64,000 bases of DNA from Somniosus microcephalus (taxonomy: Eukaryota). Positions 6,465 through 64,000 of this stretch are shown piece after piece; the first letter of the stretch is position 1, and every line of letters starts with the position of its first letter. Under the pieces are notes generated by a model. It had not been told where the DNA came from. It saw only the letters and a program-made list of their open reading frames with translations, and ran no database searches. The position numbers and the translations under genes were made by a program. The stretch is from assembly GCA_052327205.1 (NCBI GenBank), contig CM126212.1, positions 23,932,001 through 23,996,000 on the forward strand. The letters are read 5' to 3'.

Positions 6465-6582
6465 TGTGGCGTGGTCCTGGGCTCCCTCCTGCAGATCTGC
6501 TGCTCCTGGCTGGCTTACAGCACCAGTCTGATGCTGATTGAAGCGGCGATCGCAGCTAAACGCAAAACCTACGTTGGTCTCG
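6465..6582 (+). CDS. SLC38A10: SLC38A10-like coding exon (about exon 2, 118 bp)
   Basis: ttatag|TGT...CTCG|gtaagt; encodes [39 protein letters not shown], compare SLC38A10 CGIVLGALLLVFCSW...KRRTYAGL. Confidence 0.9.
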
Positions 6583-9500
6583 GTAAGTTCTCGCTATAGG
6601 AGGAAATAAGTTACCTCGAGCAGAGATTATGATAAATAGCCGAAGGATGTTGGTGCTGTAAGTTTGAATCTTTTGTGTGCACTTTAAATGAGCTCCACCA
6701 TCAGCACTAACTTCCTGCTGAAAGCACCACTTGGTGCTGTAACCTGCACTATTTTTTATAGACTTTAGACAACACAACTTGAATGTTTAACATAGAAACA
6801 TAAGAGCAGGAGTCGGCCATTCGGCCCTTCGAGCCTGCTCCGCCATTCAATATGATCATGGCTGGTCCTCTATCTCAATACCATATTCCCGCTCTCTCCC
6901 CATACCCCTTGATGCCTTTTGTGTCTAGAAATCTATCTATCTCCTTCTTAAATATATTCAGTGACTTGGCCTCCACAGCCTTTTGTGGTAGAGAATTCCA
7001 CACGTTCGCCACCCTCTGAGTGAAGAAATTTCTCCTCATCTCAGTCCTAAATGTCCTACCCCGTATCCTGAGACTGTGACCCCTCGTTCTAGAATCCCCA
7101 GCCAGAGGAAACATCCTCCCTGCATCCAGTCTGTCTAGCCCTGTCAGAATTTTATACGTTTCAATGAGATCCCCTCTCATTCTTCTAAACTCTAGTGAAT
7201 ACAGGCCTAGTCGACCCAATCTCTCCTCATACGACAGTCCTGCCATCCCAGGAATCAGTCTGGTGAACCTTCGTGGCACTCCCTCTATGGCAAGTATATC
7301 CTTTCTTAGATAAGGAGACCAAAACTGCACACAGTACTCCAGGTGTGGTCTTACCAAGGCCCTGTATAACTGTAACGTTAGTTGTTTTTATGCCACAGAG
7401 GCTCCAGCTTCCAATCTTGGAGGATTTACTACACGTAATAAGTTAATTGGGACAACATTCACCAACTTCCCTTCCTGACCCCCATTTTAGCTGATGTTGT
7501 AAATGGCTTGCTCTCCTCGGGTACTGTCCCTCCCTCTTTCAAAACTGCCATCGAAGCATAGAATGATACAGCACAGAAGGAGGCCATTCGGCCCACCGTG
7601 CCTGTGCCAGCACTTTGAAAGAGCTATCCAATTAGTCCCACTCCACTTCTTGTTCCTCAAAGCCATGCAAATGTTTCAATTTTGCGTATATAGCCCATTC
7701 CCTTTTGAAAGTTACTATTGAATCTGCTTCCACCACCCTTTCAGGCAGCGCATTCCAGATCATAACAACTCGCTGTGTTAAAAAAAAACTCCTCATCTCC
7801 CTCTGGTTCTTTTGCCAATTATCTTAAATCTGTGTCCTCTGGTTACCGACCCTCCTGCCAGTGGAAACAGTTTCTCCTTATTTACTCTATCAAAACCCCT
7901 CAGAATTTTGAACACCTCTATTAAATCTCCCCTTCTAGGAATAGAGAGAAACTATTTCCGCTGGTTGGGGAGTCTAGGACTAGGGGACATAGCCCAAGCA
8001 TTAGAGCCATATCTTTCAGGAGTGAAGTTAGGAAACACTTCTACACACAAAGGGTGGTAGAAGTTTGGAACTCTCTTCTGCAAATGGCAGTTGATGCTAG
8101 ATCAATTTTAAATTTTAAATTGGAGATTGATAGATTTTTGTTAACCAAAGGTATTAAGGGATATGGGGCAAAGGATTTAGGTCATAGATCAGCCATGAGC
8201 TCATTGAATGGTGGAACAGGCTTGAGGGGCTAAATGACCTACTCCTGTTCCTATGTCTCCTTCTCTGCTCTAAGCAGGACAATCCCAGCTTCTGTAGGGC
8301 CTCTTAGACCAAAGCCCAAAAAACCGGAAAGGTCACCCCCGACAAAGGACGGTGAAAATATTGCTGTGTTTTAATGTTAGTGGGTGTTATGTATACAACA
8401 AGCATTACTTGAACTATCTGGAATTTGTTCATTATTTAAACCATTTGCCTGTTTGGTTTTCATAAAGTGGCGCACACTCAGAAATCTGCTGGACTTTATC
8501 TCTTCTCACTCCTCCTTATCTCTCCTCTCCTGAAGATGTGGGTATTTTGAATTAGCACTGACCGAATTTACAATTTCTCTTTTAGCTCAAATATCGTATG
8601 GAATACCTGGAAAATTAATGGTCGAAATAAGGTGAGTGGCCATCGGTGCATTTGATGTTGGAAAGCTTTCTTGTTCTAAGGCTGAGAGTTCCCATATGTT
8701 GTTTGCTATCTTGGTCTCCCTGTTTACGGTTGAGGGCCTGACCTGCTGTCAGGCTCCCCAGTACTTGGAAAGCAACTGCTAAGCGATGCACACAGACCGA
8801 CTGAGGTGACTTCCCCTTCGGCTTACACTTTCCCTCCTTCAGTTATTCACAGGTGTCCTCTGCTGATGACCTTTGGATAGTAATAAGGCTGAGGCTGGAA
8901 ACCATGGTGCGTGCGTTGGATGCTTCAGCAAACTGCGCTTACATGAAAGCTGCACTTCCCGACCGGGGTCGATTTTTGACTTTGTGCGTTAGTGCGAAAC
9001 GGGTGATAGCGAGTCGGCAGCCTGTTGAAGTCAATGGAAATAAAAATGGGGAGATGTAGAACGGGCCACCGACTTGCTATCGCCCATTTTACACTATCAC
9101 ACAAAGTTAAAATCGACCCCCCCCCGCCCCCCGCTACATACTTTGAACTCCAGTTCTGGTCACCACACTTTAGGAAGGATGTGAAGGCCCTTGAGAGGGT
9201 GCAGAGGTGATTTACCAGAATGGTTCCGGGGATGGGGGATCTTAGCTACAAGGACAGGTTGGAGAAGCTGGATTTGTTTTCATTGGAGCAAAGGAGGTTG
9301 CGGGGTGATTTGATAGAGGTGTACAAGATTATGTCGGGTTTGAATAGGCTAGACGGGGAAAGGCTGTTCACACTAGTTGATGGTACAAGGACTAGGGGAC
9401 ACAGATTTAAGGTTTTGGGCAAGAGATACAGGGGGGATGTGTGGTAAAACTTTTTTACGCAGCGAGTGATGGGGACCTGGAACTCGCTGCCGACGGAAGT

Positions 9501-12500
9501 GGTGGAAGCGGAGACACTCAATGTTTTCAAGGGGAGACTGGATAGGCACTTGAGGGAAATAAACTTGCAGGGCTACGGGGATAGAGTGGGGGAATGGGAC
9601 TGACTGGATTGCTCTACAGAGAGCTGGCGCAGACTCGATGGGCCGAGTGGCCTCCTTCTGTGCCGCTATGGCTCTTGACTCTATCTTCAAGATCATCTAT
9701 TAGCCCCCAAACTAAATTGAGCATTTTCACTTCAACCTGTATTGGGGAACTGGCTGAAGTCAATCCCAGCAACATCAATCGATGTAGTTTAAACATTCCC
9801 GCCTGGAATTTCTGCAGCAGCAGCTGTTCCGAACTCCTGTCCTAACATTGGCAAAATCAGCGGAAACCCTAGAGAAAAGGCTGGATCTCATGGTTTCTAT
9901 TTTCAATCTTGTATCTGCCTCAATCATGTTCAGAACTGGATTAGTTCCTTTAATCTGACTCTGGTCTCTTGTGCAAGCACCTGCCCCCCCCCCCGCCCCC
10001 ACACTTCGGGGCATTTTCTATGTTAATCCAAGTTGTTGGTGTTGTTGTTGCTACTACAAACAGAATTGTTTCCGACTATTTGTGAAAGGCTCGTAGTTTC
10101 TCTAATATGGGAGCATTTCAGTTGCATCAAAATGCTCTGGTGTTTTAATGGAAGTAAGACCGTGTTGTCAAAGTGTTCAGGTAAATGGAGAGCGGGAAGA
10201 AGAACTTGCATTTCTATAGCATCTTTCACGACCTTAGGACGTCCCAAAGTGCTTTACAGCCAATGAAGTACTTTTGAAGTGTAGTCACTGTTGTAATGCA
10301 GGAATCAGGGCAGCCAGTTTGCACACAGCAAGCTCCCACAAACAGCAATGGGCTATATAACCAGATAATTTGTTTTTGTGATGTTGATTGAGGGATAAAT
10401 ATTGGCCAGGACACCGGGGAGAACTCACCTGCTCTTCTTCAAAATAGTACCATGGAATAATTTACATCCACCTGAGAGAGTAGAGGAGGCCTTGGTTTAA
10501 CATCTCATGCTGAAAGATGGCACCTTTGACAGTGCAGCATTCCCTCAGTGCTACACTGGAGTGTCAGCCTAGATTATGTGCATAAGTCTCATGGAGTGGG
10601 ATTTGAATCCACAACTTTCGGACTACAGAGGCGAGAGTGCTACCCACTCAGCCACAGCTGAGGAGGGAGAGGAAGTCCAAAAAATAAAAGTCCACAGACA
10701 TTAACCAGCCATTGGTATTGCACACGGAAGAGATTGAGAACAGCTTTCACATCCTCAGCAAATATTTTCTACTTGATCATCAGCACAGAACCAGAAACCT
10801 GCTTTAGTTGCAGTTCAATTTTAATTACAAGGGGTGCTGGTTTTCTGCTTACAGTATGATCGGGTTATTGCTGGGAACCTGCATTGCTTTCTTTGTTGTG
10901 CTTGAAGATCTGGGAGCCAACTTGTTCCTGGTGTTGACTGGATCCTCGGTAAGTTCAATACACCATTCAGTAAAACAGGCTAAATTTCCACTTTGCTTGG
11001 GTTTGTTTTTTCTCTTTTCCTGTTTTTGTTTCTCTTCAATCTTCTCTCCGCCCATCCCTCTTGAACAAATTGATTCCTTCACCACAGTACAATTGCTCAG
11101 ACACCAGTGACCCTCTGGTACCCTGTCAATTATTCATGTGTGAGTCCTGACAGCAAGTGTTGCCAGGCTATCTGGCTGGAGATCAGATTGCAGGCAAGCC
11201 CAATCCTCCCTGCACCTGGAATCCACGCACGCACACTTGGGGCAGTAGTGGGAATTCTGGCTGATTTTTCATTTCCTAAAGCCAAGGACATTGAGGCCAA
11301 TGTTGCTTCCCAGCTGCCACTCTTGAGATGAGCAAGCAGGCATCAAACCCTCGGCCCCCTGACCTGTGTGGCTCAGTTGTACAATGGCTTTACCAACTGA
11401 AGCTCAATTGGAAGGAATTGAATGTTTGCATGTTTCAGTTGAGTCAACTCAAACCTATCTAACCAAACCTGGGCCCTCGAAACTCTGCAGTTCCTACTCC
11501 ACCACTGGAAGTGCGTCAGAGCGGGACACCCAGATTCCTGCAGCATAAGAACATAAGAAATAGGAGCAGGAGTAGGCCAATCGGCCCCTCGAGCCTGCTC
11601 CGCCATTCAATAAGATCATGGCTGACCTGATCCTAACCGCCAATCCACTATCACAGAACCATCTCCTGAATCTAACAGAATTAGACACACGAAATAGGAG
11701 CAGGATCAGGCTACACGGCCCCTGGGCCCGCTCCGCTACCCACAGGGCCATGACCGATCCGAACCTAGACTCTTGTCCAAATTCCTGCCCGCTCCCCGTA
11801 ACCCTTAATTCCCTTTACTTCTAGGAAACTGTCTATTTCTGTTTTAAATTTATGTAATGATGTAGCTTCTACAGCTTTTTGGGGCAGCATATTCCATGGA
11901 CCTACCACCCTCTGAGTGAAGTAGTTCCTCCTCATCTCAGTTTTGAAAGAGCAGCCCCTTATTCTAAGACTATGCCCCCTAGTTCTAGTTTCACCCATCA
12001 TCGGGAACATCTTCCCCGCATCCACCCGATCCAACCCCTTCACAATCTTATATGTTTCAATAAGATCGCCTCTCATTCTTCTGAACTCCAATGAGTAGAG
12101 TCCCAATCTACTCAACCTCTCCTCATATGTCCAGCCCCTCAGCCCCGGTTTTAACCGAGTGAACCTTCTTTGTACTGACTCGGGAGCAAGTATGTCTTTT
12201 CTTAAGTATGGACACCAAAACTGTACGCAGTATTCCAGGTGCGGTCTCACCAATACCTTGTACAACTGAAGCAATACCTCCCTATTTTTATATTCTATCC
12301 CCCTAGCAATGAAAGCCAACATTCCATTGGCCTTCTTAATCACTTGCTGCACCTGCATACTAACTTTTTGAGTTTCGTGCACCAGGACCCCCAGATCCCT
12401 TTGTACTTCAGTACTTTCCAGTTTCTTGCCATTAAGATAATAACTTGCTCTACGATTTTTCCTGCCAAAGTGCATAACCTCACACTTTCCAGTATTGTAT

Positions 12501-15500: not shown

Positions 15501-18500
15501 GAACATCCTTCCTGCATCTAGTCTGTCCAGTCCTGTCAGAATTTTATAAATTTCAATGAGATCCCCTCTCATTCTTCTAAACTCCAGTGAGTATAAGCCC
15601 AATCGACCCAATCTCTCCTCATACGTCATTCCTGCCATCCCAGGTATCAGCCTGGTGAATTTTCGCTGCACTCCCTCCATGGCACAAGTCGGTGAGTGCA
15701 CTGCCCAGAGTGTAACTGGGCCGTGCTGTGCTGCATTCGGTAATGTCAGATAGGACGGAGCTGGGGACATTTCAATTAGCCTCAGAGCCCTGGCCGCAGA
15801 AGGAGGGAAAATAAAGTCGGCCAGAATTCCTAATACAGCTGAAAATAGATGGGATAGAAACAAAGAATCCTGGAAAACCCTCAGCATCTGTGGAGAGAGA
15901 AACAGAGTTAACGTTTCAGGCCAGTGACCTTTCATCAGAACTGAAATATTGACCTGAAACGTGAGCTCTGTTTCTCTCTCCACGATCGCTGCCTGACCTG
16001 CTTGAGTGTTTCCAGCATTATTCTGTTTTTATTTCAGATTTCCAGCCCCTGCAGTATTTACTTTTGCACATATATGGAGTCTGGGCAAGGACATGATCAG
16101 ATTATGCCTGTAATGTCTCATTTCTAATCACGATCCAGTGACCACTGTTAGACGTTTGTGTGTGGACACCAGGTGCGGATAGGATTGGGCTTGACAGTGA
16201 TGCCTCCATGTCAAGTAGCCTGCAGCACCTGCTGTCAAAGCCCACAATGGCCTCTTGGCTGAGGTATTGGAGGCCAACTGGCACCCATGGAGCCAACCAT
16301 CCTTCAGCAGAGGAAATGAGGGGAGGAAAACTGGAGACAGAAAGGGTTGGGGGGGAGGGTGGTGGAGGAGCAGGCACTGCTGTGGAGGACGGGAGGTTCA
16401 CCAGACTGATTCCTGGGATGGCAGGACCGTCGTATGAGGAGAGATTGGGTCGACTAGGCCTGTATTCACTAGAGTTTAGAAGAATGAGAGGGGATCTCGT
16501 GGAAACGTATAAAATTCTGACAGGGCTAGACAGACTGGATGCAGGAGGATGTTTCCCCTGGCTGGGGGGTCTAGAACGAGGGGTCACAGTCTCAGGATAC
16601 AGGGTAGGACATTTAGGACTGAGATGAGGAGAAATTTCTTCAGAGTGTGGTGAACCTGTGGAATTCTCTACCACAGAAGGCTGCGGAGACCAAGTCACTG
16701 AATATATTTAAGAAGGAGATAGATAGATTTCTAGACACAAAAGGCATCAAGGGGTATGGGGAGAGAGTGGGAATATGGTATTGAGATAGAGGATCAGCCA
16801 TGATCATATTGAATGGCGGAGCAGGCTCGAAGGGCCGAATGACCTACTCCTGCTCCTATTTTTCTATGTTTCTATGTAAGTGCATCACCTGGGTCACCTC
16901 AGGCCACTCCAGCTCACATTGCCAGTTCACTGCAACATTGGTGAAGGACCGGTAACTGCCCGAACCCTGAGCCCGGAGTGCAGTGGAGCAGAAGAAGATG
17001 AATTAAGACTAGACGGTAACATAAACTAGCAATGTGGCGTTCTGTGCTCATTTGTTTTTACTGTTTCATAAGTTCTTGTGCATTTTCCAAGCAGAGTACG
17101 CCGTGGCAACGTGCTTTATTGCTACTCACCATCACCTCTACAGTGGTTCTCCCCCTCAGCCTGCAGAAAAAGGTGTCGGATTCACCCTGGCAGTCGTTGC
17201 TCTCGCTCACCTTTTATATGTTATTGATGATTGTGGTGAGTACTGGGAGCACAGTGAGAACAAGACTGGAATCCTGGCATTATTGATCAGATGGGTGTAT
17301 AGATTGCCTCACTCTATATATCATTGCCCATTATTTAGAGGATATGTAATATAAAATACAATTTTTACACTGGACTTTATTGTACCCGGGTGACTAGGTA
17401 AATGGATTTATGTTTTGTCCTCTCTCTTGAAGGCTTAGCTGGGGTACAGTTCCACAGAAACTGGCCACCCTGCGCTATCTTGACAAGGTACCCATTCTTT
17501 TATGTATAAGCTTACTTGGTGAGGAGCCTCCAGGGTGGGGAGACTCCAGGGTGGGGAGACTCCAGGGTGAGGAGCCTCCAGGGTGGGGAGACTCCAGGGT
17601 GGGGAGCCTCCAGGGTGAGGAGCCTCCAAGGTGGGGAGACTCCAGGGTGGGGAGCCTCCAGGGTGGGGAGCCTCCAGGGTGGGGAGCCTCCTTGGTGGGG
17701 AGCCTCCAGGGTGAGGAGCCTCCTCGGTGGGGAGCCTCCAGGGTGGGGAGCCTCCAGGGTGAGGAGCCTCCAGGATGGGGAGCCTCCAGGGTGGGGAGCC
17801 TCCAGGGTGAGGAGCCTCCTCGGTGGGGAGCCTCCAGGGTGAGGAGCCTCCAGGGTGGGGAGCCTCCAGGGTGAGGAGCCTCCACGGTGAGGAGACTCCA
17901 TGCTGGGGAGCCTCCATGGTGAAGGTTGGCAGTATACTCTTCTTTGTAGACCATCAAACCTGAGCCCAGTCCGTCATCACCCGACAGTCACACACATGTA
18001 TTTTTCAGCTGGACTCACTGGGCAATAATCAGAAGCAGCGATGAGGGCCTTTACTTCCCCTCTGTAACACTTGGGTGCCGACTGACGTAATAAAACTCAC
18101 TACGCACGTTCGTGTATAAAGCAAGGCTTTAATCAACTTGTTTCAAAACATGGAGGACTAGTTATCTTTCACTAGTTCCTGTTTACAAAATGTCCTGGGC
18201 AAGCTGGGCCCACGCCCGAGTATTTATACTCCTTGGACGGCGCCACCAGCTGGCCGTCCAGTGTTATTTCATGAGTCTTTCTTCATGGATCATAAGATTC
18301 ATAACACCGACCATTTTGACGCCTTACCACTGCTCCAGCTGAAATCAATCAGAGAGAGAACCCAGGACAGTCTCATCGATGTGGTTCAGTTTCACATCGG
18401 GGAACTGACACCTGAGTTTCTTTCACTTAGAGCATGACACAGGTTAGAACAGACTGAGGAAGTTACAGTCAACAGGAATGAGGCAATCTCAATCCAGTTT

Positions 18501-21500
18501 TCAGTAGGGAGGACTTCGCAGCACACAGCAAAACTCAACAATCCTATCCAGTGTCCAAAACAAAGATGCCACCTTAGTACAGAAGGGACAGAGTAAAGTT
18601 CTTTCATCTGTATTTTGGTGTCTGTAGGGAGAGCATTACATTTGACCCATGTTGTACACACTGGGTAAAGATGAAAAAAACACATAGAATTTCCAGGTCC
18701 ATCATCCCTTCCCTTAATGAAACCAACCAGACACATCCAGCATGAAACAAGTAGGGGAAAAGATTAAATCTGTCAGCCATCTCTGAAAAGTAATTTTGTT
18801 ATGAAAAAAATCATGTGTTATCCTTATCACCCATTAACGTAAACTATTTGATGACAATCATAATTTTAAAAAATCAAAAAGATGATTCGTTTTTAAATCT
18901 AAAGAGATTAGAATTTTCCATTTTCTTTAGACTTCATCATGAATATTAAGTATCAACACACTGAGAAAAGTTCTGTGGCTCAGATCAAACCAATCAAATT
19001 TAATCAAATCCAACGTCCGTTCTGAGCTTAGTGCTAGAACCTCTGTAAATGTCAGCATCTCTCTTTAATAAAAAGGATATTCTCCCTCCAGTTTTTGCAC
19101 TTGTTATGTCCCCTCTTTGGTCTCCCAGGCCATGCATCGTACTCCAGCGGGAGTCTGCTCCTTTAGGAGACGAAGGGAGACAATTGAGGGGGTGGTGGGG
19201 GGAATGTTAAAAAGTCTGCTATAATGCATGCAGTACTTGCAAATTATTAACTGACCACTAGATGGCCCCTGGTGGAAATCAGCACGTTGTAGCAATTACA
19301 CTCCCAAGCTTGTGTTGGTTTTCTTATTCTTTGACAGAATGTGCTAGAGGGTCTGGAAATAAGAGCAGCAGGTTATTACCACACCAACTCGAGTGTTGAT
19401 GTGACATAACAGTCTCTGATTTAGTTTGTGTTGGTAGAGATGAGAAATTCACACAGGGGGGGTTTCTCTTGGTTTTCAGCTGCTGGTATACTGCCTGAAC
19501 TTGGTGCTGTCCAGTGGCTTGGCGGTGGAGAATGTCCGCTTGTGGCAGTGGTCTGGGATTGCCACGTGTCTGCCGATATTTGCCACCTCATACTGCTGTC
19601 ACCCGTAAGTGACGTAAAGATCCGGTGCACCCAAACTGCTGGCTTTAGTCATTGGGAATTGTAAAAGACTTGCATTTATATAACGCCTTTCACAACCAGT
19701 GGATGTCCCAAAGCACTTTACAGCCTATGAAGTACTTTTGAAGTGTAGTCACTGTTGTAATGTGGGAAAGTAACGTAGCTACGTGAAGGAGATAGGTAAG
19801 CTCAAAAAATGGCCAAACTTGCGATAATACTACAAGGGTTAATTTTCCAATGCACGTTTTAGCGTTCATTTGAATGGAGGGAAAATCATGGGCCCAGGGA
19901 GTGGACAGGGGCTCGAATTCCCATCATGGGCTCCTGGTGTACAAAGCCCTACTCCAGGACCGTTAAAGACAAAGGTTCATCCAGAACTCTGCTGCCCGTA
20001 TCCTGACTCGCACCAAGTCCCGTTCACCCATCACCCCCTGTGCTCGTTGACCTACATGGCCTCCCTGTCCGGCAACACCTCGATTTAAAAATTCTCATCC
20101 TTGTGTTCAAATCCCTCCCTGGCCTCGACCCCTCTCCTATCTCTGTCACCTCCTCCAGCCCTACAACCCCCGAGATCTCTGCGCTCCTCCAATTCTGGCT
20201 ACTTGCACATCTCTGATTTTAATCGCTCCACCATTGGCGGCCGTGTCTTCAGCTGCCGAGGCCCGAAGCTCTGGAATTCCCTGCCTAAACCATTATGCGT
20301 TTCTACCTCTCTCTCCTCCTTTAAGATGCTCCTTAAAACCTACCTCTTTGACCCAGCATTTGGTCACCTGTCCTAATATCTCCTTATGTGTCAAATTTTG
20401 TTTTGATAGCGCTCCAGTGAAGCGCCTTGGGATGTTTTACAGGAAACTTTGTGTTATCCGGAGGCTAACTGTCCGGAATGCTCGAGCCACCGGCAAAAAT
20501 CGGGAGCCGTTTTCGTTAGGTTTTTTTTCTTCTTGTTGCTTTTTTCCTCAAAAGTCAAGCTCTGCAAGGTCTGCTGAAGCTGTTGCTAAGCTACAGAGAC
20601 GCTACAGAGATGCTTGGACTGTTTAGAAGCTGTTGCTAAGCAACAGGGTTTGTTGACAGATACGGAGCTCAGAAGCTTCCGTATCTTTCAACATTAGCGC
20701 TGGAGTGTCCGGCGGTTTTGAGGGAACGGCAACAGCCAGATAGCACAAAGTTTCCTGTACTATGTTAAAGGTGCTATATCAGTGCAAGTAGTTGTTGTTG
20801 TTCAGCTGAATGTAATACAGTGGGACTGCTTTATAATTAAAATGTTATTTGCACCGTGAAAACTGTCATCTGCTGCCTCTGCCACTTCCCTTCCTTCCCC
20901 TAGCCCACCGGGTCAAACTTCCTCTAAGGTTTCCCCCTGCCCTAGCCCTGAACTCACATCTTTCTCCAGTTTCTCTCCGATCTCTCCTCATGACCTCTCT
21001 GTGCTCATCTTGTCCATGAGACCCACCTCCTGCTCCCTCGACCCCAGTCCCACCAAACCGCTGACCACCCAACATCCTTTTCTGGCTCCCATGTTAGTTG
21101 ATACTGTTAACGATTCTCTCTCCTCGGGTGCTGTCCCCCTCGCCCTCAAATCTGCCGTCATCACCCCTCTCCTCATCAACCCTTGATCCCTCCGTCCTTG
21201 TAAACTACCGCCCCATCTCCAACCTCCCTTTCCTCTCCAAAGTCCTTGAATGTGTTGTCGCCTCCCAAATCCGTGCCCATCTTTCGCAACTCCATGTTTG
21301 AATCCCTCCAATGAGGTTTCCGCCCTTGTCACAGTACCGAAATGGCTCTCATCAAAGTCAAAAATAACATCCTTTGTGACTGTGACAAAGGTAAACTATC
21401 CCTCCTCGTCCTTCTTGACTTGTCTGCAGCCTTTGACACAGTTGACCACTCCATCCTTCTCCACCGTCGTCCAGCTGGGTGGGACTGCACTCGCCTGGTT

Positions 21501-33500: not shown

Positions 33501-36500
33501 TCCTCACAAGAGCGTATTAGCAGAAATAAGAGCAAACGGAATTGGGTCGATAATTGAGTGGGAGGCAGGAGATAGAGAGTCGGGATAAAGGATTTGTTCT
33601 CAGCTTTTCACCATACATATTAGTGGCTTAGATGAAGGAACAGAGTTGTATATCCCATGTTTGCAGATGTCACTAAGTTAGGAGGCACAATAAGTTACGT
33701 GGATAGGTGGAAGAGGCCTATTGTAGGTGGAAGAAAGCGCTTTTGGTAATGGAATGGATGCGGGAAGAAAGCTGAACTTGGGCTTGAGCAAAATGCCAGG
33801 ATGCTGAGGTGGTTCTGCAAACAGTGGCAGCAGCCGGGGATATTGAAAAGCTGAAATTGCCTTCCATAGTAGAAGCCACTCTCTCTTCTGCCGTCCATCT
33901 CATAGTCACTGCTGTCTCCTGGTTCTGCTCTTACCTGACTCAATAAGAAGTTATAAAAGGGCCAACATCCCCAGCATCGAAGCTCTGACCACGCTCGATC
34001 AGCTCCGATGGACGGTCCACATCGTCCGCATGCCCGATACGAGACTCCCAAAACAAGCGCTCTACTCGGAGCTCCGACACGGCAAGAGAGCCCCAGGTGG
34101 GCAGAGGAAACGCTTCAAGGACACCCTCAAAGCCTCCTTGAAAAAGCGCAACATCCCCACCGACACCTGGGAAGCCCTGGCCCAAGACCGCACAAAGTGG
34201 AGGAGAAGCACCCGGCAAGGCGCCGAACACCTCGAGTCTCTTAGCCTAAGCCATGATCTGGTGGTGTGTGTTGTATCGCTTTCCAAAGTGAGGGAGATCA
34301 CGAGACAGCTTGTGCCATATCTAGTAAATTTAGTACAGTAACAGGGCTTTCTGTTCAACCCTAAGACAACACTGCAATACCAAATATTGTGCCTGTAAGG
34401 CTATACTTTGGTCCATAAGGAGTGAAAGCTCGCTAGTGGGAGTGGGTCATGATCCTGAGCATAAGAGAAATATAGCAAAAGGACCAGAGGGGGGGGATGA
34501 GGAAAATTGTTTTTTTACGCAGCGAGTTATGATCTCACAGAATCACAGAAACCCCACAGTGCAGATAGAGGCCATTTCGGCCCATCGAGCCTGCACCGAC
34601 ACATATCCCACCCGATCCCCGTAACCCCACGTATTTAATCCCCCTAACACTAAGGGTCAATTTATCATAGCCAATCAACCTAACCCACACATCTTTGGAC
34701 TGTGGGAGGAAACCGGAGCACCCGGAGGAAACCCACGCAAACACGGGGAGAATGTGCAAACTCCACACAGACAGTCACCCGAGGCCGGATTCGAACCCGG
34801 GTCCCTGGCGCTGTGAGGCAACAGTGCTAACCACTATGCCACCGTGTGAGGTTGATGTGGGGAAGGAAGGTAGAAGGGCAGTGGACAGGTCAAGCATGGA
34901 GGTGATGAAGGCACGACTAGGGTTTCAGAGGCAAAAGCAGACAGTATTGTAGGTGGAAGAAAGCCCTTTTGGTAATGGAATGGATGTGGGATGGAAACTG
35001 AACCTAGGCTTGAGCAAAACGCCAAGATGCTGAGGTGGTTCTGCAAGCATAGTGGCAGCAGCTATTGCAGCAACGTACTGTTTGTGTCAAGTCAGGGAAG
35101 AGCAGAGGCAAGGAGACAGCAGTGACTTTGAGATGGACAGCAGAAGAGAGGCTTCTACTATGGAAGGCAATTTCAGCTTTTCAATATCCCCGCATTGAAC
35201 CTCAAAGGGTAGAAGAGGTTTGCCGCAGCCAGCAAGTATCATGTGTTTCACATCTGGTAGCTGGGTGTGATTGGGGAAAGATTGATTTCCTTTGTTCCTG
35301 GTCGAACTTTGAAGGGGATGTAAAGCACTGATAAGGTTCCTCACAAGAGCGTATTAGCAGAAATAAGAGCAAACGGAATTGGGTCGATAATTGAGTGGGA
35401 GGCAGTGCCACCGCACCGATCTGGAACGCACTCCCTGAAAGGGTGGTGGAAACAGATTCAATGGTAACTTTCAAAAGGGAATTGGATATATACGTAAAGG
35501 GGGATAATTTGCAGTGCAGGGGAAGAGCAGGGGAGTGGGACTAATTGGATCGCTCTATCAAAGAGCCGGCACAGGCACGATGGGCCAAATGGCCTCCCTC
35601 CGTGCTGTATGATTCTAGTAAAATCCGAACACGTAACAATGACCATCTCTTTTCCTTCTTGCAATGCACTGTATTCTGCCAATGTGCTGTAAGTGCAGTG
35701 CATAAAGCTTGATATATGCCAGAAGTAAATGGAAGACCGAGGACAAGTGCAATCTTGACCCCTCGCACCCCAGCTAGATTTCTAGCCATTCCCCTGATTG
35801 TGGCATGTGTTTGGTCTTTCAGTGCAGACTGTGTTAGGAATAATGGGAACCACCATGGGGAGCATCATCTGCTTCATTTGTCCTTCTGCGATCCATGCAA
35901 AACTACGTAAAGATACTTTCACAGGACGAGTAAGTATAGCCTTATTTCCATCAGTTATGTTCTAAACTTAATAGTCAAAGTAAGTCATTTCCCACTTCGC
36001 ATTCAACAGTGCAGAGTCACAGATTCCACCTTCACACCTCAAACCATGGACTTCACTTCTGCAGAGCTGGGTTTTTTTGAGGTTGAAGGGGTAGATTTTC
36101 TTCTCCAGACACCCAGCGGTGTCCTGAGGTGTGTTGTGCCGAAGAGGAAAAGGGTGCACTGCAGTTTTATCTCAATGCGGGGGAGCTCCTGGGGCAGGCC
36201 CAGCTGAGAAACGGGGGTGGAATTGTAAGCACGGCTGTGTATCGGGTGTCCAAGATCAGGATCTACTGACTGCTGATGGAGGTCAGTTATCTGCAAGTTC
36301 GTACTCATGTCAGACGACTACTGTACTACAATTTATAAGCTGATCGGGAGAGATGAAATAAGGTGGGAGGAGGTTCGTGTGGAGCAGAAACACCGGTGTG
36401 GACCTGTTAGGCTGATTGGCCTGTTTCTGTGCTGTACGTACTATGTAATATAATGCTTCCGTGTAACCAAATGGTCCAAGATGTTCTACAGGACAGGTGA

Positions 36501-39500
36501 ACACCAAGCAGAATGGTTAGGTGAAATTGGGTTGACTGGTGGGCTGAAGGTTGAATTTGGCCAAATAAACTCATCTCATTTATAATCCTGATATCCAGCA
36601 GAGATTTTTTTCATTTGCCTCATCAATGACATAATCGATTTTAAAGCACCTTGGGCGAAAAAAAAAATCGAGTTTGGGGCATTAACTTCGTAGCGCCCTG
36701 GAAAAATTAGCGCCCCCACGCTGGAACTTCAGTGGTTGCGCCTCGAGGGAAGCGGGGCGCAACTGGAAACACCCCACATCCCTCTTCGGGCGCTGCGAGT
36801 CAATAACGTGGCGCTACGTGCCGCGGTATTGCAGGCCTTCCTCCCCTTCTTAAAGGGGAGGAGCCTTGCGCAGCGCGACCCTGGGCCCCCGGGGATCAGG
36901 AGTGCCGGCAAAAGAGCCCGGCACTCAAGAGAAACGCTGGGGCTCTTGGAGCACAGCCGGCACTCTGCGAGGGGGGGGGCCGTTCAGGAGGCTGGGGACG
37001 GGAACGCAGGCAGGTGCTGGCAGGCAGCCAGCAACAAAAATGGCCGCCCCGCACCTCACCTTTAAATTGCACCTCCCCAGCTGCAGGTCGCTGCATACGG
37101 CGATGACGTCATCGCCGGTGGCGCAGCGCCGCAGGATGCTACCGGTTAGCGCCGCTGCTAACCTCCCCCTTAAACTTCGCGGGAGGCGTGGGCGGCACCG
37201 CGCCCGGGCGCTAGTTGCTTTGCGCCCCTTTAGCGCCCTCTTGGGGAGGCACAAAGCATCTCAATTTTTTCCCCTTTATCTTTAAATGCTTGACATCCAT
37301 AGACAGAAGCTACATGTTCAGGCTCATCACCATACCTAGTGCTGAGAAAAATGTCATGCCCAGGGAAAATCTGAATTCCCAGTTCAATTTTGAAGCGTGT
37401 CATGTGGACAATATCAATGCAATTGCAAGGGTCTCAATTCAAACCTGGTCTTGCAGATCGTTCTGGGAGTGGGAATCCTCCTCCTCCTCATCCGTGCATT
37501 GAGTATCTCCGATTTAAGCGGGGGAGAATTCTATTTACAACCAGTCCGGAAATCCATAGTGGTTGATGAATCAGGAAATATAAAGCCAACATTTAGGAAC
37601 AAAGGTAAGATAATTAATTGTTCAGTTTTTAATGAAGATTCGTTAATGGAGATGTTTCTTTAAATCAATCATTAAACACAAGTTTAAACGGCCAGTCTGA
37701 ATAACTCCAGATGTTTAGGGAGGTCGGGACTAGCAGAGAAATGATTGACTCAGGTTTTGGTGGATTCATTGGAAAATCATTGACCCCCAACAGACAACAA
37801 ACCAAACTGTTCCCTGACTCGAACAGCAGGACCCCTTAGAATTCGGATGTGGCCAACACTGGCAAGGCAGTATTTATTGTTCATCCCCCCCACTCCCCGG
37901 TGCCCTGAGGGCGTTTAGATTCAACCCCACAGTGTGGGACTGGAGTCACATGTAGGCCAGACCAGGTAGGGGTGGCATTCTTATTCTAAATGATATCATA
38001 GTGAACCAGTTGGAGTTATATGATAACCCGGCAGCTTTCATGGTAATTTTCTGCTGCTAATTACCAGATCTTTAAAAAAATGCAATTTCACAACTAGCTG
38101 TGGTGGGATTTGAACTCATATCCTCTGGGTTACTATAAGCACTAGGCTACTGTACCCATGTACTCGTACAGCTCCTGTCCAGGCCCAGGAGCGTCACGAT
38201 TTCCTATCCCAGGCAATCTCCATGGCTTGGGAGCACCCCCCCCCCCCGACACAGTGCACCCCTTCACAGGACACAGTGCCGCTGGGAAACTGAGACACAG
38301 CCAGAAAGTCCCAATGAGACTTTGACAACTTGAAGGGGAAGGGAGGTTAAAAATGTCATTGAAGTATCTCCTGAAGTCTTGGGCCTAACCCTGGGACCCT
38401 CGCAGGCCCTCCAGTCAGAGAGGGTTCAAGGGCAGGCCACAGTGCTTTGGGAAAGCCTGGGCAGGGGCATCCAGTGAGCAGACAATCCAGAAAATGAAGC
38501 GGGAGGCCGGGAACATCTCTTCCCGGCTTCCTGTTGCATTGCTCAATGGACCCGAGCCTACTGCAGGCGCAGGCCAAGCTCTGCTCCCCAAAGGAAAAGC
38601 ACATAATTTAAATGAAATATAAGGAGACAGAGACCCGGAAAGACAAATAGAGTAATCGGGCTGGATTTTCATTGAGGAGGCGGGTAGGAGGCGGGACTAC
38701 AACTTTCGGGGTTGTAGTCCCGTCTCCATGGAGTTCTAGCCAACCCACGCGATTTTGACTTGATTGACCTTGTTGAGCCCGCCCAGCGGTCTCAGCAGGC
38801 CAATTAAGGGCCACCCGGCAACAGGTGACATCACAGATTGACATTTCATCTGTCAAGACCTTTTGACAGATGAAATATCAGCGTTTCACAGCTGTTTGAA
38901 GCTGTCAAACACTGACAATCTGTACTCCAGGTTAATTCCTTCCTCTCAGGATGATTTAGAGATCTCCCCGGAGCAGAAAGCAGAGGCTGCAGATTTGACA
39001 GCTGGCAGCCATTCTGCTTTCTGTGCCGGTGAGATGAGGGACTCCCGAGACCTGAAGGAAGGAAGCCTGAAAAGGTAAGTAAAGGTTAGTAAAACTTATT
39101 TAAACACTTTACACAGACCAAACACACTTACATCTGCACTCATGCACCCATCACTCACCTGAACATCAGACATCTCGACCCCTCCAAGCCTTTCATCCCG
39201 ACAGCCCGCCTCGCTAACTTGGCATGGTTTGGAGCCGTCGGGAATCCCACACTTCAACATTAAAAATAGGGATTAGGCTAAAAACTGCCTGTTAACTACC
39301 TGTTAACAGGCAGTTAATTGGCACTAATCCCCTTCCCGCCTCAGGGAGGCAGGTCCCAGTGCAGGGCGGGTACCCGCCTCCTTTGAAACTGACATGGAGG
39401 CGGGATGGGGTCGGAACCCCTGATTTCGGGATTTTAAACCCCCACACGCCTCCAATCCCGACTCCACGGCCCACTGAAAATCCTGCCCATAGTGTTATAC

Positions 39501-48500: not shown

Positions 48501-49069
48501 GAGTATAAATACTCGGGCACGGGCCCAGCTTGCGCAGGACATGCTTAACAGGAACTAGTGAAGGACACAACTAGACCTCCATGTTGTAAAACAGTTGATT
48601 AAAGCTTTGTTTAACGCTTAGACCAAGTGCCTAGTAGTTTTCTTGCGTCACTAACATTTATTTATTTCCACCCCCCCCACACCCAACTACAGGACCAGTC
48701 TTGCCCGAATTAACAAGTAGAGGTGATTATAACCAGTTTAAACGAAACAGCAGAATACTGACCTACAGAGCAGGAGACGAGATAGATACAAGTACAGTCG
48801 TCAACAAAGAAACCGTCAGCACAACAGAAGCCGTCCAACTCCTAGAGGCTGGTTCCCCCTCCGCACCCAACGAGGAGGAAACATTGAAGGAACTGAAAGA
48901 AAGGAAAAGGACTAAAGCAGTTACACCTTTATCAGAAATCAGGTCAAGAGCAAAAACAACAAACCCACCCCTAGGCAGGGTGCACACAGAGCAAAGGGAC
49001 CCCGATGTGAAGGAGTCAGCCTATACTTTGAAAAGAAAGCTGGAAAAACACAGATTGAAACTTAACTGA
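6465..49069 (+). CDS. SLC38A10: SLC38A10 (SNAT10)-like amino acid transporter gene, spliced CDS of 11 exons in the window; first coding exon not found; likely a divergent paralog
   Basis: Exons 6465-6582, 8586-8631, 10855-10948, 17095-17235, 19480-19604, 23090-23192, 25039-25221, 32598-32709, 35823-35929, 37457-37604 and 48693-49069 have AG/GT ends and join into one stop-free frame (1554 nt, 517 aa plus stop). Motifs such as [41 protein letters not shown] and [11 protein letters not shown] match SLC38A10 as I recall it. Confidence 0.88.
6790..7375 (-). mobile_element. CR1 (HER1-like) LINE 3' fragment
   Basis: ORF 6875-7357 [14 protein letters not shown]...[16 protein letters not shown]; catagaaa tail. 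Confidence 0.92.
7555..8255. mobile_element. Two abutting CR1 3' fragments in opposite orientation (about 7555-7935 -, about 7936-8255 +)
   Basis: CR1 3' ORF end and UTR sequence are present on both strands. Confidence 0.75.
8586..8631 (+). CDS. SLC38A10: SLC38A10-like coding exon (about exon 3, 46 bp)
   Basis: ttttag|CT...AG|gtgagt; encodes (A)[14 protein letters not shown](S); phases 1 and 2 fit the neighbouring exons. Confidence 0.88.
8964..9121. mobile_element. Palindromic MITE, about 158 bp
   Basis: ggggtcgattttt-gactttgtg...cacaaagttaaaatcgacccc with imperfect inverted arms of about 60 bp; a related piece lies at about 24170-24335. Confidence 0.75.
9138..9680 (+). mobile_element. CR1 LINE 3' fragment
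   Basis: [11 protein letters not shown]..., [19 protein letters not shown]. Confidence 0.88.
10197..10660 (-). mobile_element. tRNA-derived Deu-domain SINE with L2 tail (SacSINE1-like), near full length
   Basis: Reverse complement of the copy at 23596-24065: A/B-box head, central conserved domain, L2-like tail. Confidence 0.85.
10855..10948 (+). CDS. SLC38A10: SLC38A10-like coding exon (about exon 4, 94 bp)
   Basis: ttacag|T...TCG|gtaagt; encodes [31 protein letters not shown], within ORF 10808-11110. Confidence 0.92.
11545..12975 (-). mobile_element. CR1 LINE, about 1.4 kb of RT and 3' end
   Basis: ORFs 12534-13067 ([26 protein letters not shown]) and 11765-12505, frameshifted. Confidence 0.93.
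12983..13430 (-). mobile_element. CR1 LINE 3' fragment
   Basis: ORF 13084-13419; (catagaaa)n tail. Confidence 0.9.
13507..13868 (-). mobile_element. Deu-domain SINE, 5'-truncated
   Basis: Similar to 23596-24065. Confidence 0.8.
15167..15680 (-). mobile_element. CR1 LINE 3' fragment
   Basis: C-terminal half of ORF 15267-15983; near-identical to 12983-13430. Confidence 0.9.
15860..16068. mobile_element. Penelope-derived inverted-repeat element with a minimal hammerhead ribozyme on the - strand
   Basis: The minus strand reads cagtt-CTGATGA-aaggtcactggcct-GAAA-cgttaactc; both arms match the 3' tail of the Penelope element at 46726-46848. Confidence 0.75.
16392..16877 (+). mobile_element. CR1 LINE 3' fragment
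   Basis: [11 protein letters not shown]...[14 protein letters not shown]; tttctatg tail; very similar to 6790-7375. Confidence 0.9.
17095..17235 (+). CDS. SLC38A10: SLC38A10-like coding exon (about exon 5, 141 bp)
   Basis: aagcag|AGT...GTG|gtgagt; encodes [47 protein letters not shown]. Confidence 0.88.
17518..17920. repeat. 17-bp G-rich minisatellite, about 23-24 units
   Basis: Unit GGTG(G/A)GGAG(C/A)CTCCAGG repeated head to tail with no spacers. Confidence 0.95.
18083..18306 (-). mobile_element. Solo LTR, 224 bp
   Basis: TG...CA ends and 5-bp TSD ccgac; TATAAATA and ATTAAA on the - strand; related to 48425-48650. Confidence 0.85.
19480..19604 (+). CDS. SLC38A10: SLC38A10-like coding exon (about exon 6, 125 bp)
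   Basis: tttcag|CTG...CC|gtaagt; encodes [41 protein letters not shown](P). Confidence 0.88.
19985..20802 (+). mobile_element. L2 3' fragment interrupted by a MITE
   Basis: L2 ORF end (PRSLRSS, GGRVFS, KLWNSLP, LKTYLFD) and (TTG)n tail, split at 20440-20757. Confidence 0.85.
20440..20757. mobile_element. Tc1/mariner-type MITE, 318 bp
   Basis: TIRs caggaaactttgtg...cacaaagtttcctg, flanked by a duplicated TA inside the L2 tail. Confidence 0.85.
20880..22642 (+). mobile_element. L2 LINE, about 1.8 kb of RT and 3' end, frameshifted
   Basis: [36 protein letters not shown]; (TTG)n tail. Confidence 0.93.
23090..23192 (+). CDS. SLC38A10: SLC38A10-like coding exon (about exon 7, 103 bp)
   Basis: gtcaag|A...ATG|gtaagt; encodes [34 protein letters not shown]. 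Confidence 0.87.
23596..24065 (+). mobile_element. tRNA-derived Deu-domain SINE with L2 tail, full length
   Basis: A box tggctcagtgg, B-box-like ggttcatagtccc, conserved core, and tail gcgctttgggacgtcc...gctataaaaatgcaag. Confidence 0.88.
24640..24840 (-). mobile_element. Deu-domain SINE 3' fragment
   Basis: Reverse complement of the 3' half of 23596-24065. Confidence 0.8.
25039..25221 (+). CDS. SLC38A10: SLC38A10-like coding exon (about exon 8, 183 bp)
   Basis: tttcag|GTT...CAG|gttagt; encodes [61 protein letters not shown]. Confidence 0.93.
25310..27210 (+). mobile_element. CR1 LINE, about 1.9 kb with an RT domain, several frameshifts
   Basis: ORFs 25514-26191 ([24 protein letters not shown]), 26200-26520 (FADD) and 26369-27049. 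Confidence 0.95.
27213..27615 (+). mobile_element. CR1 3' fragment of a second subfamily
   Basis: [12 protein letters not shown]...[17 protein letters not shown]. Confidence 0.8.
27625..28693 (+). mobile_element. L2 3' fragment
   Basis: [19 protein letters not shown]; (TTG)n tail. Confidence 0.9.
28982..29517. mobile_element. Non-autonomous TIR element (Harbinger-like)
   Basis: ggcctgagagttt...aaactccaggcc termini; CpG-rich interior. Confidence 0.55.
29826..29999. mobile_element. Palindromic MITE
   Basis: gctccaatcttaa...ttaaaaacgggagc with imperfect inverted arms. Confidence 0.5.
32598..32709 (+). CDS. SLC38A10: SLC38A10-like coding exon (about exon 9, 112 bp)
   Basis: taacag|AAA...G|gtaagt; encodes [37 protein letters not shown]. 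Confidence 0.9.
33960..34240 (+). mobile_element. RTE-clade LINE 3' fragment
   Basis: [15 protein letters not shown]...[16 protein letters not shown]...[12 protein letters not shown]. Confidence 0.88.
34534..34845 (-). mobile_element. HE1 / V-SINE, full length
   Basis: tRNA-like head (gtggcatagtggttagc, gggttcgaatcc), V-domain (gtgggtttcctccgggtgctccggtttcctcccacagtccaaaga), CR1-like tail. Confidence 0.9.
35823..35929 (+). CDS. SLC38A10: SLC38A10-like coding exon (about exon 10, 107 bp)
   Basis: tttcag|TG...CGA|gtaagt; encodes (V)[35 protein letters not shown]. Confidence 0.92.
36653..37274. mobile_element. GC-rich non-autonomous TIR element (Harbinger-like), copy 1
   Basis: gggcgaaaaa...ttttttcccc termini; clear homology with 56004-56709. 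Confidence 0.7.
37457..37604 (+). CDS. SLC38A10: SLC38A10-like coding exon (about exon 11, 148 bp; last TM helix and start of tail)
   Basis: ttgcag|ATC...G|gtaaga; encodes [49 protein letters not shown]. Confidence 0.85.
38658..39488. mobile_element. Non-autonomous Harbinger-like element
   Basis: TIRs gggctggattttca...tgaaaatcctgccc. Confidence 0.65.
39490..39835 (-). mobile_element. CR1 3' fragment
   Basis: ORF 39561-39833 (TRGHSFK...NFFTQRV..WNS). Confidence 0.85.
40343..40910. mobile_element. RTE LINE 3' end with a 5' inversion
   Basis: 40343-40580 is antisense ([10 protein letters not shown]...[16 protein letters not shown]); 40592-40910 is sense and ends in (AAG)n. Confidence 0.85.
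42564..45371 (-). CDS. Gypsy Pol polyprotein (protease, RT, RNase H, integrase), 935 aa open frame
   Basis: LIDCGS protease; [18 protein letters not shown]; RNase H SDASD, EKEA, TDQ; integrase H..H..C..C, DFKGP, HSD, NGQVER. Confidence 0.93.
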   Translation of the reverse strand: MASITVDQSRPHPLTKSMMDIQVNGNLTKCLIDCGSTESFIHPSLVQRHSLTVAPTRSRIAMAAKPHTSDILGYCVVTLTVKGTDYKDFKLLVMPELCVNVILGLDFQCHHESVTLAYGGSQPPLTVCGLSILKISPPSLFANLAPNCRPIATKSRRYSLEDRHFIKAEVDRLLREGIIECSTSPWRAQVVIVKNSEKKWMVIDYSQTVNIYTQLDAYPLPRISEMVNQIAQYRVFSTIDLKSAYHQLPIRTEDRPYTAFEVNGRLYHFLRVPFGVTNGVSVFQREMDRMVDANKLQATYPYLDNVTICGHNQQDHDLNLARFLKTALKLNLTYNEDKCVFNTTRLCILGCVVEGGVIGPDPDRLRPLKELPLPHNPKALKRCLGFFSYYAQWVPNYSDKARPLIKSTSFPLSAEAREAFTSIKQDIERAALCAVDESIPFQVESDASDFALAATLNQAGRRVAFFSRTLQGPEIRHSSVEKEAQAIVEAVRHWRHYLAGKRFTLLTDQRSVAFMFNNKQRGKIKNDKILRWRIELSTFDYDIMYRPGPLNEPPDALSRGMCASIHTDKLQGLHNDLCHPGVTRLYHFIKSRNLPHSIEEVRAMTRACRICAECKPRFYRPDRACLIKATRPFKRLSLDFKGPLPSADHNVYFLNIIDEYSRFPFAIPCPDMTSATVIKCLCNLFCMFGMPNYIHSDRETSFMSDELRQFLLSKWIATSRTTSYNPRGNGQVERDNAAVWKAVTLALKSKGLPTSRWQEVLPDVLHSIRSLLCTATNATPHEKMFVFPRKSTSGISLPAWLTSPETVLLRKHMRGHKTDPLVEKVQLLHANPQYAYIEYSDGQEDTVSIKDLAPSGSGENDERLPEEDLHYKETGRPEVSIPNFNLEDTADNLEDTAEARTAEEPESTPLEAPQPALRRSLRTAKPPDRLTYTNF
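45478..45702 (-). pseudogene. Truncated gag N-terminus of the Gypsy element
   Basis: [13 protein letters not shown]... starts about 25 nt after the 5' LTR; only about 330 bp separate its start from pol, and no zinc knuckle is visible. Confidence 0.75.
46726..46766 (+). ncRNA. Minimal type I hammerhead ribozyme in the Penelope 3' repeat
   Basis: cagtt-CTGACGA-agggtc-att-gacct-GAAA-cgttaact: conserved core boxes, a stem II hairpin and a palindromic ACGT stem III. Penelope elements are known to carry such minimal hammerheads. Confidence 0.8.
48050..48372 (-). mobile_element. CR1 3' fragment
   Basis: ORF 48122-48430 [13 protein letters not shown]...EIDR; CR1 3' UTR. Confidence 0.75.
48425..48650 (+). 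mobile_element. Solo LTR, 226 bp, sense to the host gene
   Basis: TG...CA ends and 5-bp TSD ctaac; TATAAATA at about 48504 and ATTAAA at 48598; homologous to 18083-18306. Confidence 0.87.
48693..49069 (+). CDS. Probable terminal coding exon of the SLC38A10-like gene (hydrophilic C-terminal tail)
   Basis: CTAAC branch motif and a C-rich tract precede ctacag|GA. A phase-1 join to 37604 puts it in frame with ORF 48701-49069 (K/E/T-rich, not a recognisable repeat). No homology evidence; intervening exons cannot be excluded. Confidence 0.6.
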
Positions 49070-63300: not shown

Positions 63301-64000
63301 ACCAGTTACAGGTTCGATAATGTCCATGTCCCTCAATTGTTTTATTTTGGCCTCTACTGCCCCCCTTAAGTTGAATGGTATACGCCTGAGTGGCTGGGCC
63401 ACAGGCTTCACTTGTGGGTCGATATACAAACTGATCAGTTTTGTGTTCAGCCTTCCTACTCCCTGGAACACCTTTGGATACCGCTGTTCTAGTAGCTGTC
63501 TTACATCTACCACAGCTGAGACATCTGCGCCTATTTTTAAAACTCCCAGTTTCATGGCTGTCTCCCTTCCTAGCAACGGCTCTCCATGGCCTTTAACCAC
63601 AATGAACTCCGCCTGCTCAGTTCTCTTACCTATTGTAATCCCACATGTGAATACACCTTTAACTGACAGTGGTCAGCTAGAAGCATAAGAGAATAACTTT
63701 CTCTCTGTCTTAGGGACATGTGACTGACACTTAATGTGTTCTGACTTTAATCCTTCCCATGTATTCTCATCTATCACATTACTAGTTGCACCCGAATCAA
63801 TTAACATTCTTAGGTTTACTCCCCCCACACAAAAGGTAAGTCTCTCTGTCATGTTACTTCCAGTAACAGCAAATGCAAAGTCATTTTGTTCCTCTATATT
63901 GTTCACACTGTGTTTCTTTGTACCCTTTGTGCGGCATACTTTGGAGAAATGATCCTTTCCCTTGCACTTATGACACGTTTGTCCACGTGCTGGGCATTTC
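60379..64000 (-). mobile_element. Gypsy (Mag-like) LTR retrotransposon; 3' LTR at 60379-60584; continues beyond the window
   Basis: 3' LTR has TG...CA ends and an internal 36-bp tandem duplication; PPT aaggaaaaggggga. A CCHC knuckle lies at about 63930-63990, followed by protease LIDSGA, RT NISDD, RNase H and integrase, split by frameshifts and stops. Confidence 0.93.
60751..63906 (-). pseudogene. Disrupted pol of the Mag-like Gypsy element (ORFs 63673-63906, 62755-63600, 60751-62562)
   Basis: Protease, RT, and RNase H plus integrase motifs in three separate ORFs. Confidence 0.88.

Follow-up and report, generated by a model that had tools for sequence, protein, structure and literature searches.

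In the available text of PMC6940841, canonical SLC38A10 (SNAT10) is described as an ER-Golgi carrier of glutamine, glutamate and aspartate with a 722-aa luminal tail. Proteins with the LeuT/APC fold hold their substrate between TM1 and TM6 and form the Na2 site with TM1 and TM8 (bioRxiv 10.1101/288233, available portion). In SNAT2, the substitutions N82A and T384A reduce Na+ affinity, TM8 carries a T-L-T motif, and F301 of TM6 has been modelled in the pocket (PMC9906736, available portion). As regards elasmobranchs, slc38a2/5/7 are the only members mentioned in the accessible part of a study on SLC38 genes (PMC8923501). SLC38A10 itself remains poorly characterised. Natural variants at its predicted substrate and sodium sites, such as those provided by the paralog analysed here and by the alternative exon-6 isoforms of fish, would allow the contributions of TM6 and TM8 to be tested directly by comparison.

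The present study characterised an SLC38A10-like gene in a stretch of 64,000 nucleotides (hereafter, the window) of the 6.4 Gb genome of the shark Somniosus microcephalus, and compared it with the canonical gene of the same genome, with its relatives in other vertebrates, and with described SLC38 carriers.

Structure and conservation of the window gene

The gene lies on the + strand and comprises 12 coding exons, of which the window carries exons 2-12, from position 6465 to a stop at 49069; the 11 coding exons inside the window were delimited by tblastn with five shark relatives and inspection of splice sites. Exon 1 contributes 90 coding nt with the ATG and is located 10.8 kb upstream of the window (G000:C11:23921147-23921236). 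It is followed by exon 2 (6465..6582, 118 nt), exon 3 (8586..8631, 46 nt), exon 4 (10855..10948, 94 nt), which encodes TM3, and exon 5 (17095..17235, 141 nt). Exon 6 (19480..19604, 125 nt) spans the end of TM5 to TM6 and terminates with C203-H204-P205, a type hereafter referred to as 6a/CHP. Exon 7 (23090..23192, 103 nt) precedes exon 8 (25039..25221, 183 nt), encoding TM8 with T278 and S280, which alone matched the Pfam domain Aa_trans (PF01490) with 36.5 bits, above the cut-off of 25.6, the Carcharodon ortholog scoring 153.9 bits. The gene is completed by exon 9 (32598..32709, 112 nt), exon 10 (35823..35929, 107 nt, TM10), exon 11 (37457..37604, 148 nt, TM11 and the start of the tail), and the last coding exon 12 (48693..49069, 377 nt including the TGA), which encodes the bulk of a hydrophilic tail.

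The joined reading frame of 1644 nt encodes 547 aa, with a single terminal stop and no frameshift, and all 11 introns are GT-AG. The initial annotation had proposed ten exons with canonical splice sites and no stops: the splice sites and the open frame were borne out, while the exons in the window turned out to be 11. It had also anticipated a tail of about 150 aa, in agreement with the 155 aa measured after residue 392. The window protein shares 77% identity with the Heterodontus ortholog over 553 columns covering the whole protein, far above chance, and its identity to the Carcharodon ortholog, the one used in fold prediction, is 72.5%, with 80% in the membrane domain. The last exon had no match in Pfam, neither N-glycosylation nor R-x-K/R-R sites were found in the protein, and a sequence search of the PDB returned weak matches only (best E 0.066).

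Other features of the locus were also recorded. Tandem AG acceptors occur at exon 5 (17092-17095), where use of the AG located 3 nt upstream would add one codon and yield the canonical 144 nt. Intron 5 contains a minisatellite (17518-17921) with 25 copies of a 16-nt unit and 88% matches. Intron 11 hosts an LTR retrotransposon on the - strand (42231-46026) with a 997-aa open pol frame, in which protease, reverse transcriptase, RNase H, and integrase follow the Ty3/gypsy order; its LTRs are 97.7% alike across 299 nt and it is flanked by a 5-nt target-site duplication; this is a young insertion. A second LTR-type element, with reverse transcriptase, RNase H, and integrase frames, lies on the - strand at 60754-63999 and runs past the end of the window.

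Codon positions, the conservation of the frame, and transcript data were also considered. Differences between the paralogs amounted to 0.42/0.28/0.63 at the three codon positions, second positions differing least, and the open frame of the paralog is kept from chimaera to lungfish. For a 425-aa skate ortholog, eight Logan records were retrieved on contigs of 1.4-1.7 kb, a length that implies spliced mRNA in skates. In two RNA runs labelled with this species (24% and 31% read, tissue unstated), mean depth was 0-0.3x in bins of exons 6, 7, and 9, and no exon-exon joint of the exon 6-9 region was detected at 90% likeness among the 15 joints listed, with 1209 further ones and tables dominated by repeats. 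Such low depth, in runs of unstated tissue, argues only against high and broad expression of the window gene. Among indexed RNA records, none was listed for the last exon, a result that weighs neither way.

Genomic context, phylogeny, and distribution

A separate long-tailed SLC38A10 is present in the genome, on contig C21 at 54.02-54.07 Mb. A genome search with the Carcharodon relative yielded at least 20 matches, of which 11 fell at the window locus, six at C21:54.02-54.07 Mb, and three, all weak, elsewhere. The exons of the C21 gene align with residues 1-1077 of the long-tailed SLC38A10 of skate, and the first 11 translate without a stop. Intron phases are identical between the two shark genes in 11/11 cases, and exon lengths in eight of the first 11. 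Identity in the membrane domain is 45% (173/384, 45.1%) between them, and identity to primate SLC38A10 in the same domain is 44.5% for the window gene and 82.8% for the C21 gene, in line with the early estimate that roughly half of these residues differ. The tail of the window protein showed no similarity to four canonical-type tails (best E 0.26). Judged by sequence, the C21 gene is the ortholog of vertebrate SLC38A10, a grouping from which the window gene is excluded.

Human SLC38A10 is assumed here to adjoin BAHCC1, ACTG1, and FSCN2, in the order of 17q25.3, with TNRC18, ACTB, and FSCN1 as their respective paralogs; a mirror block was thus predicted and then searched for. On C21, SLC38A10 (-) is followed by a BAH gene (+, 54.566 Mb), an actin (-, 54.988), and a fascin (+, 55.03). 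Contig C11, read in reverse, presents the window gene (-), a BAH gene (+, 23.447 Mb), an actin (-, 23.284), and a fascin (+, 22.91), so that order and strand pattern of the four-gene block are the same on the two contigs. The BAH exon of C11 scored 104.3 bits for TNRC18 vs 101.0 for BAHCC1, and that of C21 scored 102.9 bits for BAHCC1 vs 97.2 for TNRC18; these small margins of just 3-6 bits are what the labels of the two neighbours rest on. Of the two fascins, that of C11 scored higher against the human fascin of known structure (434 vs 375 bits). The genome has three Sox_N genes, presumably SOX9, SOX8, and SOX10 judging from their N-termini, and each transporter has one of them on its contig, at a distance of 5.3 Mb on C21 (SoxE at 59.39 Mb) and 7.1 Mb on C11 (SoxE at 16.84 Mb). 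Downstream, at a distance of about 50 kb, the window gene is followed by an SLC29-family gene, which we take to be SLC29A4, and is thus placed between this gene and the TNRC18-like one. Both contigs also carry IMD genes, though at a great distance from the transporters (12 Mb on C21, 72 Mb on C11).

Owing to the mirror blocks on C11 and C21, the window gene and the C21 SLC38A10 are most likely ohnologs from an early vertebrate genome doubling, a possibility that the initial annotation had raised in proposing a retained duplicate, and the loss of the paralog can be placed in the TNRC18-actin-fascin block. The chromosomes concerned here are not named in the accessible part of a framework for vertebrate duplications (PMC7269912).

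Three observations pertain to these gene families elsewhere in the genome. An IMD-domain gene occurs three times with identical scores at G000:C6:176.9-178.3 Mb, indicating a recent segmental duplication or an assembly artefact; an intronless fascin-like gene with four repeats in a single 502-aa open frame is located at G000:C11:159.35 Mb; and actin-family genes, each in a long single frame, form clusters at G000:C7:8.8-9.6 and 69.0-69.1 Mb.

The phylogeny was inferred with LG+G4 on 341 columns and without exon 6; of the 51 rows aligned, 36 were used, the other 15 being partial or nearly redundant. The vertebrate clade, comprising both paralogs and hagfish, was supported at 100/100 against eight outgroup rows. 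Within it, the paralog clade (13 rows, 100/100) broadly followed species-tree order, and the canonical clade (14 rows, 99/98) left the window gene outside the true orthologs. Among the sharks sampled, the window gene occupies a basal position (94/81). Each clade includes cartilaginous, ray-finned, and lobe-finned members, placing the duplication before the jawed-vertebrate radiation. Hagfish placement received 85/43 support, and neither of its two alternative positions was rejected (AU p=0.36 and p=0.21), so that the duplication may belong to the first or to the second round. The path between this shark and Amblyraja measured 0.366 for the paralog vs 0.046 for the canonical gene, i.e., an about 8-fold faster rate, and identity between this shark and skate was 71% and 95%, respectively. 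The terminal branch of the window gene (0.062) is as long as those leading to Heterodontus and Carcharodon (0.063), giving no sign of decay.

Relatives of the paralog were found in sharks, rays, Callorhinchus, Latimeria, Protopterus, Polyodon, and Acipenser. Profile scoring of 409 collected proteins assigned 37 to the paralog class, and all the named ones belonged to cartilaginous fish, coelacanth, lungfish, and paddlefish/sturgeon. The proposal of an extra SLC38 member in cartilaginous fish thus held as to the member, while its range proved wider, extending to coelacanth, lungfish, paddlefish, and sturgeon, which rules out a restriction to cartilaginous fish. No paralog was found in teleosts or tetrapods among the protein records listed as matches (the best 120 of 705 and 150 of 4147), two of the underlying protein searches having scored about 8000 candidates each. 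Automated annotation names these relatives 'putative SNAT10' or 'SLC38A10-like', and 'SNAT6' in Acipenser; as to misnaming in general, SLC38A10 proteins of birds carry the labels S38A3 or AVT6B. No description of the paralog was found in the literature covered, whose scope left out most subscription journals; a 2013 review on SLC32/36/38 evolution and ohnolog tables may bear on this point. The suggestion of an undescribed paralog stands for the literature covered, although orthologs already figure in automated annotations under SLC38A10 names. Overall, the paralog appears to be a real, conserved, and apparently undescribed SLC38A10 ohnolog, adding to vertebrates an unrecognised SLC38 member concealed in databases under SLC38A10 names, once under SNAT6.

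Exon 6 and the predicted transport site

Among 120 long proteins, the best of 705 matches, the exon-6 segment ended with C-H-P in 99 and was scored C-Q-S in 21. Of the latter, 20 come from amniotes, and the remaining one is a cod model in which both exon-6 types in fact lie in tandem. In Solea and in the mormyrid Paramormyrops, annotated isoforms of equal length differ only at residues 165-209, within the exon-6 segment, pointing to alternative exon-6 copies, 6a (CHP) and 6b (CQS), in the slc38a10 gene of ray-finned fish. The content of this shark is reciprocal: the C21 gene has 6b only and the window gene the CHP exon only. When the stretch separating exon 5 from exon 7 was scanned in both shark genes (9.0 and 6.1 kb) with profiles of all three exon types (6a, 6b, and paralog), no second exon 6 was detected. 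Apart from itself, the window exon 6 recovered just one match in a genome-wide search, at E=9. All of the 15 skate canonical records listed carry CQS. The H204 residue is present in 18/19 paralog rows and 6/6 6a rows, and in 0/16 6b rows and 0/9 invertebrate rows, with glutamine at this position in hagfish and in 9/9 invertebrate rows. In Haliotis rufescens, isoforms differ only at residues 169-198 of the exon-6 segment, both ending with C-Q-T; these are alternative exons of a mollusc in the same slot.

Trees based on exon 6 only (42 columns) grouped the paralog with 6a both with 51 rows (99/95; AU for 6a+6b p=0.144) and with 44 rows under a mixture model that returned a long-branch warning (99/97; AU for 6a+6b p=0.084). 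Under both models 6a was the sister of the entire paralog clade, and the characters shared by paralog and 6a go beyond CHP (L-W, A-T); the first half of 6a is more like 6b than like the paralog exon. The window exon 6 and the 6a of ray-finned fish likely share common descent. The gene preceding the duplication would have carried two tandem, mutually exclusive copies of exon 6, with 6a fixed in the paralog, 6b kept in the canonical gene of sharks, and both retained in ray-finned fish. We lean towards this ancestral-tandem history, which requires 6a to have been lost twice from the canonical gene, in cartilaginous and in lobe-finned fish; among the canonical records examined, the tandem state was seen only in ray-finned fish.

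The AlphaFold model of the Carcharodon ortholog, built on a 44-row alignment (pTM 0.73), has a confident membrane domain and a mostly disordered tail, and supports a predicted LeuT/APC fold with 11 membrane helices. Foldseek searches with this model ranked SLC38A9 first (E 2.6e-9, target TM-score 0.74) and also retrieved LAX3/AUX1. In the window protein, the substrate site is predicted to be built from TM1 and TM6, and the sodium site from TM1 and TM8. Residues N14, T278, and S280 align with N82, T384, and T386 of SNAT2, the TM8 pair being anchored manually on the proline that comes next. T278 is found in 12/19 paralog rows, the canonical gene having alanine in 22/22, and S280 in 17/19, the canonical gene having glycine in 22/22. 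Since S280 also occurs in hagfish and in 4/9 invertebrates, it represents a retained state rather than an innovation. N11 of TM1, present in 22/22 canonical rows, is missing from all the 12 paralog rows covering the position, while the window protein retains N14, the F-P of TM8, and the TM10 core. Three System A/N-type genes of this genome, presumably SLC38A1-5 carriers, bear V-C-H-P in TM6 and V-T-L-T-V-P or V-I-L-T-V-P in TM8. On this basis, the window protein may carry neutral amino acids in a sodium-coupled manner, and its pocket would differ from that of 6b-type SLC38A10.

Alternative explanations and comparison with described carriers

It is hardly conceivable that the window gene is simply the shark ortholog of SLC38A10, a recent shark-specific duplicate, or a pseudogene, even though databases call its relatives 'putative SNAT10'. 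A sole ortholog is ruled out by the canonical gene on C21 and by the separate 100/100 clade; a shark-specific duplicate by the rejection of a shark-only pairing of the two genes (AU p=3.7e-52) and by the presence of both in skates, coelacanth, and lungfish, on contigs differing in length; and a pseudogene by the absence of stops or frameshifts. An intact paralog may also have ceased to be a coupled transporter, surviving as a relaxed, weakly expressed copy, a transceptor-like sensor, or a uniporter, as its 8-fold faster evolution, the loss of N11, the near-zero depth in two RNA runs, and its apparent absence from teleosts and tetrapods could suggest. We consider this unlikely, given a frame kept from chimaera to lungfish, the 80% membrane-domain identity to Carcharodon, the low divergence at second codon positions, the spliced-length contigs of skates, and the preservation of N14, the F-P of TM8, and the TM10 core.

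Two other readings accept the ohnolog and concern its exon 6. The likeness may be convergent, ray-finned fish having duplicated exon 6 themselves and both exons having drifted to C-H-P. In this regard, a clade joining 6a with 6b is compatible with the AU tests, the C-H-P of the three System A/N-type genes suggests a reachable optimum, the abalone isoforms indicate that exon 6 can be duplicated independently, and 6a was not found in the shark canonical locus or in the listed skate records. The starred support that both models give to the paralog + 6a group, in which 6a is the sister of all paralogs, and the shared L-W and A-T characters weigh against convergence, leaving it as a serious but minority reading. 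Gene conversion or exon transfer, moving 6a from the paralog into the slc38a10 of ray-finned fish after the genome duplication, would account for its restriction to these fish without repeated losses; it is nonetheless highly improbable, because 6a branches outside the paralog clade and not beside paddlefish, its first half is closer to 6b, and the two genes reside on different chromosomes. The explanation that best fits the whole evidence, and which we regard as probable, is an intact SLC38A10 ohnolog, with the proposed TM1/TM6/TM8 mechanism and a partition of exon 6 between genes.

A broader scenario is put forward tentatively, at somewhat below even likelihood: early-vertebrate SLC38A10 may have had a TM6 switchable through exclusive exons; after genome duplication, sharks would have split the two pockets into two genes, namely the window gene, short-tailed and endowed with 6a and a sodium site resembling that of System A/N, and the canonical one with 6b; teleosts would have lost the paralog and kept the splicing, and tetrapods lost both. 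If so, mammals would be devoid of an SLC38 transport mode that fish retain by two routes. Should the exon history hold, it would clearly exemplify how gene duplication can stand in for alternative splicing, and vice versa, across vertebrate lineages, and the link of exon 6 to a fish splice switch makes the paralog experimentally useful.

Among known systems, canonical SLC38A10 is the nearest, forming the sister clade of the window gene and sharing with it intron phases, most exon lengths, and a paralogous gene block. The two differ in size, the canonical protein having about 1100 aa with a C-terminal tail of about 700 aa, whereas the window protein has 547 aa with an unrelated tail of 155 aa; in TM6, with C-Q-S in the former and C-H-P in the latter; in TM8, with A-V-G and T-S-S, respectively; and in their neighbour, BAHCC1 for the canonical gene and TNRC18 for the window gene. 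The 6a isoform of ray-finned fish occupies the same slot as the window exon 6, has the same C-H-P end, and groups with it in trees, but in these fish it alternates with a second exon within a long-tailed gene, whereas the window exon is the sole exon 6 of a separate, short-tailed gene. SLC38A9 (PDB 7KGV, 6C08) provides the best structural match to the ortholog model, yet with 16% identity; it is a lysosomal arginine sensor (bioRxiv 10.1101/288233, available portion), and the window protein is almost without an N-terminal extension. Lastly, the System A/N carriers SLC38A1-5 resemble the window protein in the C-H-P of TM6, the TM1 asparagine, and the TM8 hydroxyls at the T-L-T positions, although they are distant in sequence and are not its sister group; plasma-membrane location, MeAIB sensitivity, and H+ exchange are traits of System A/N.
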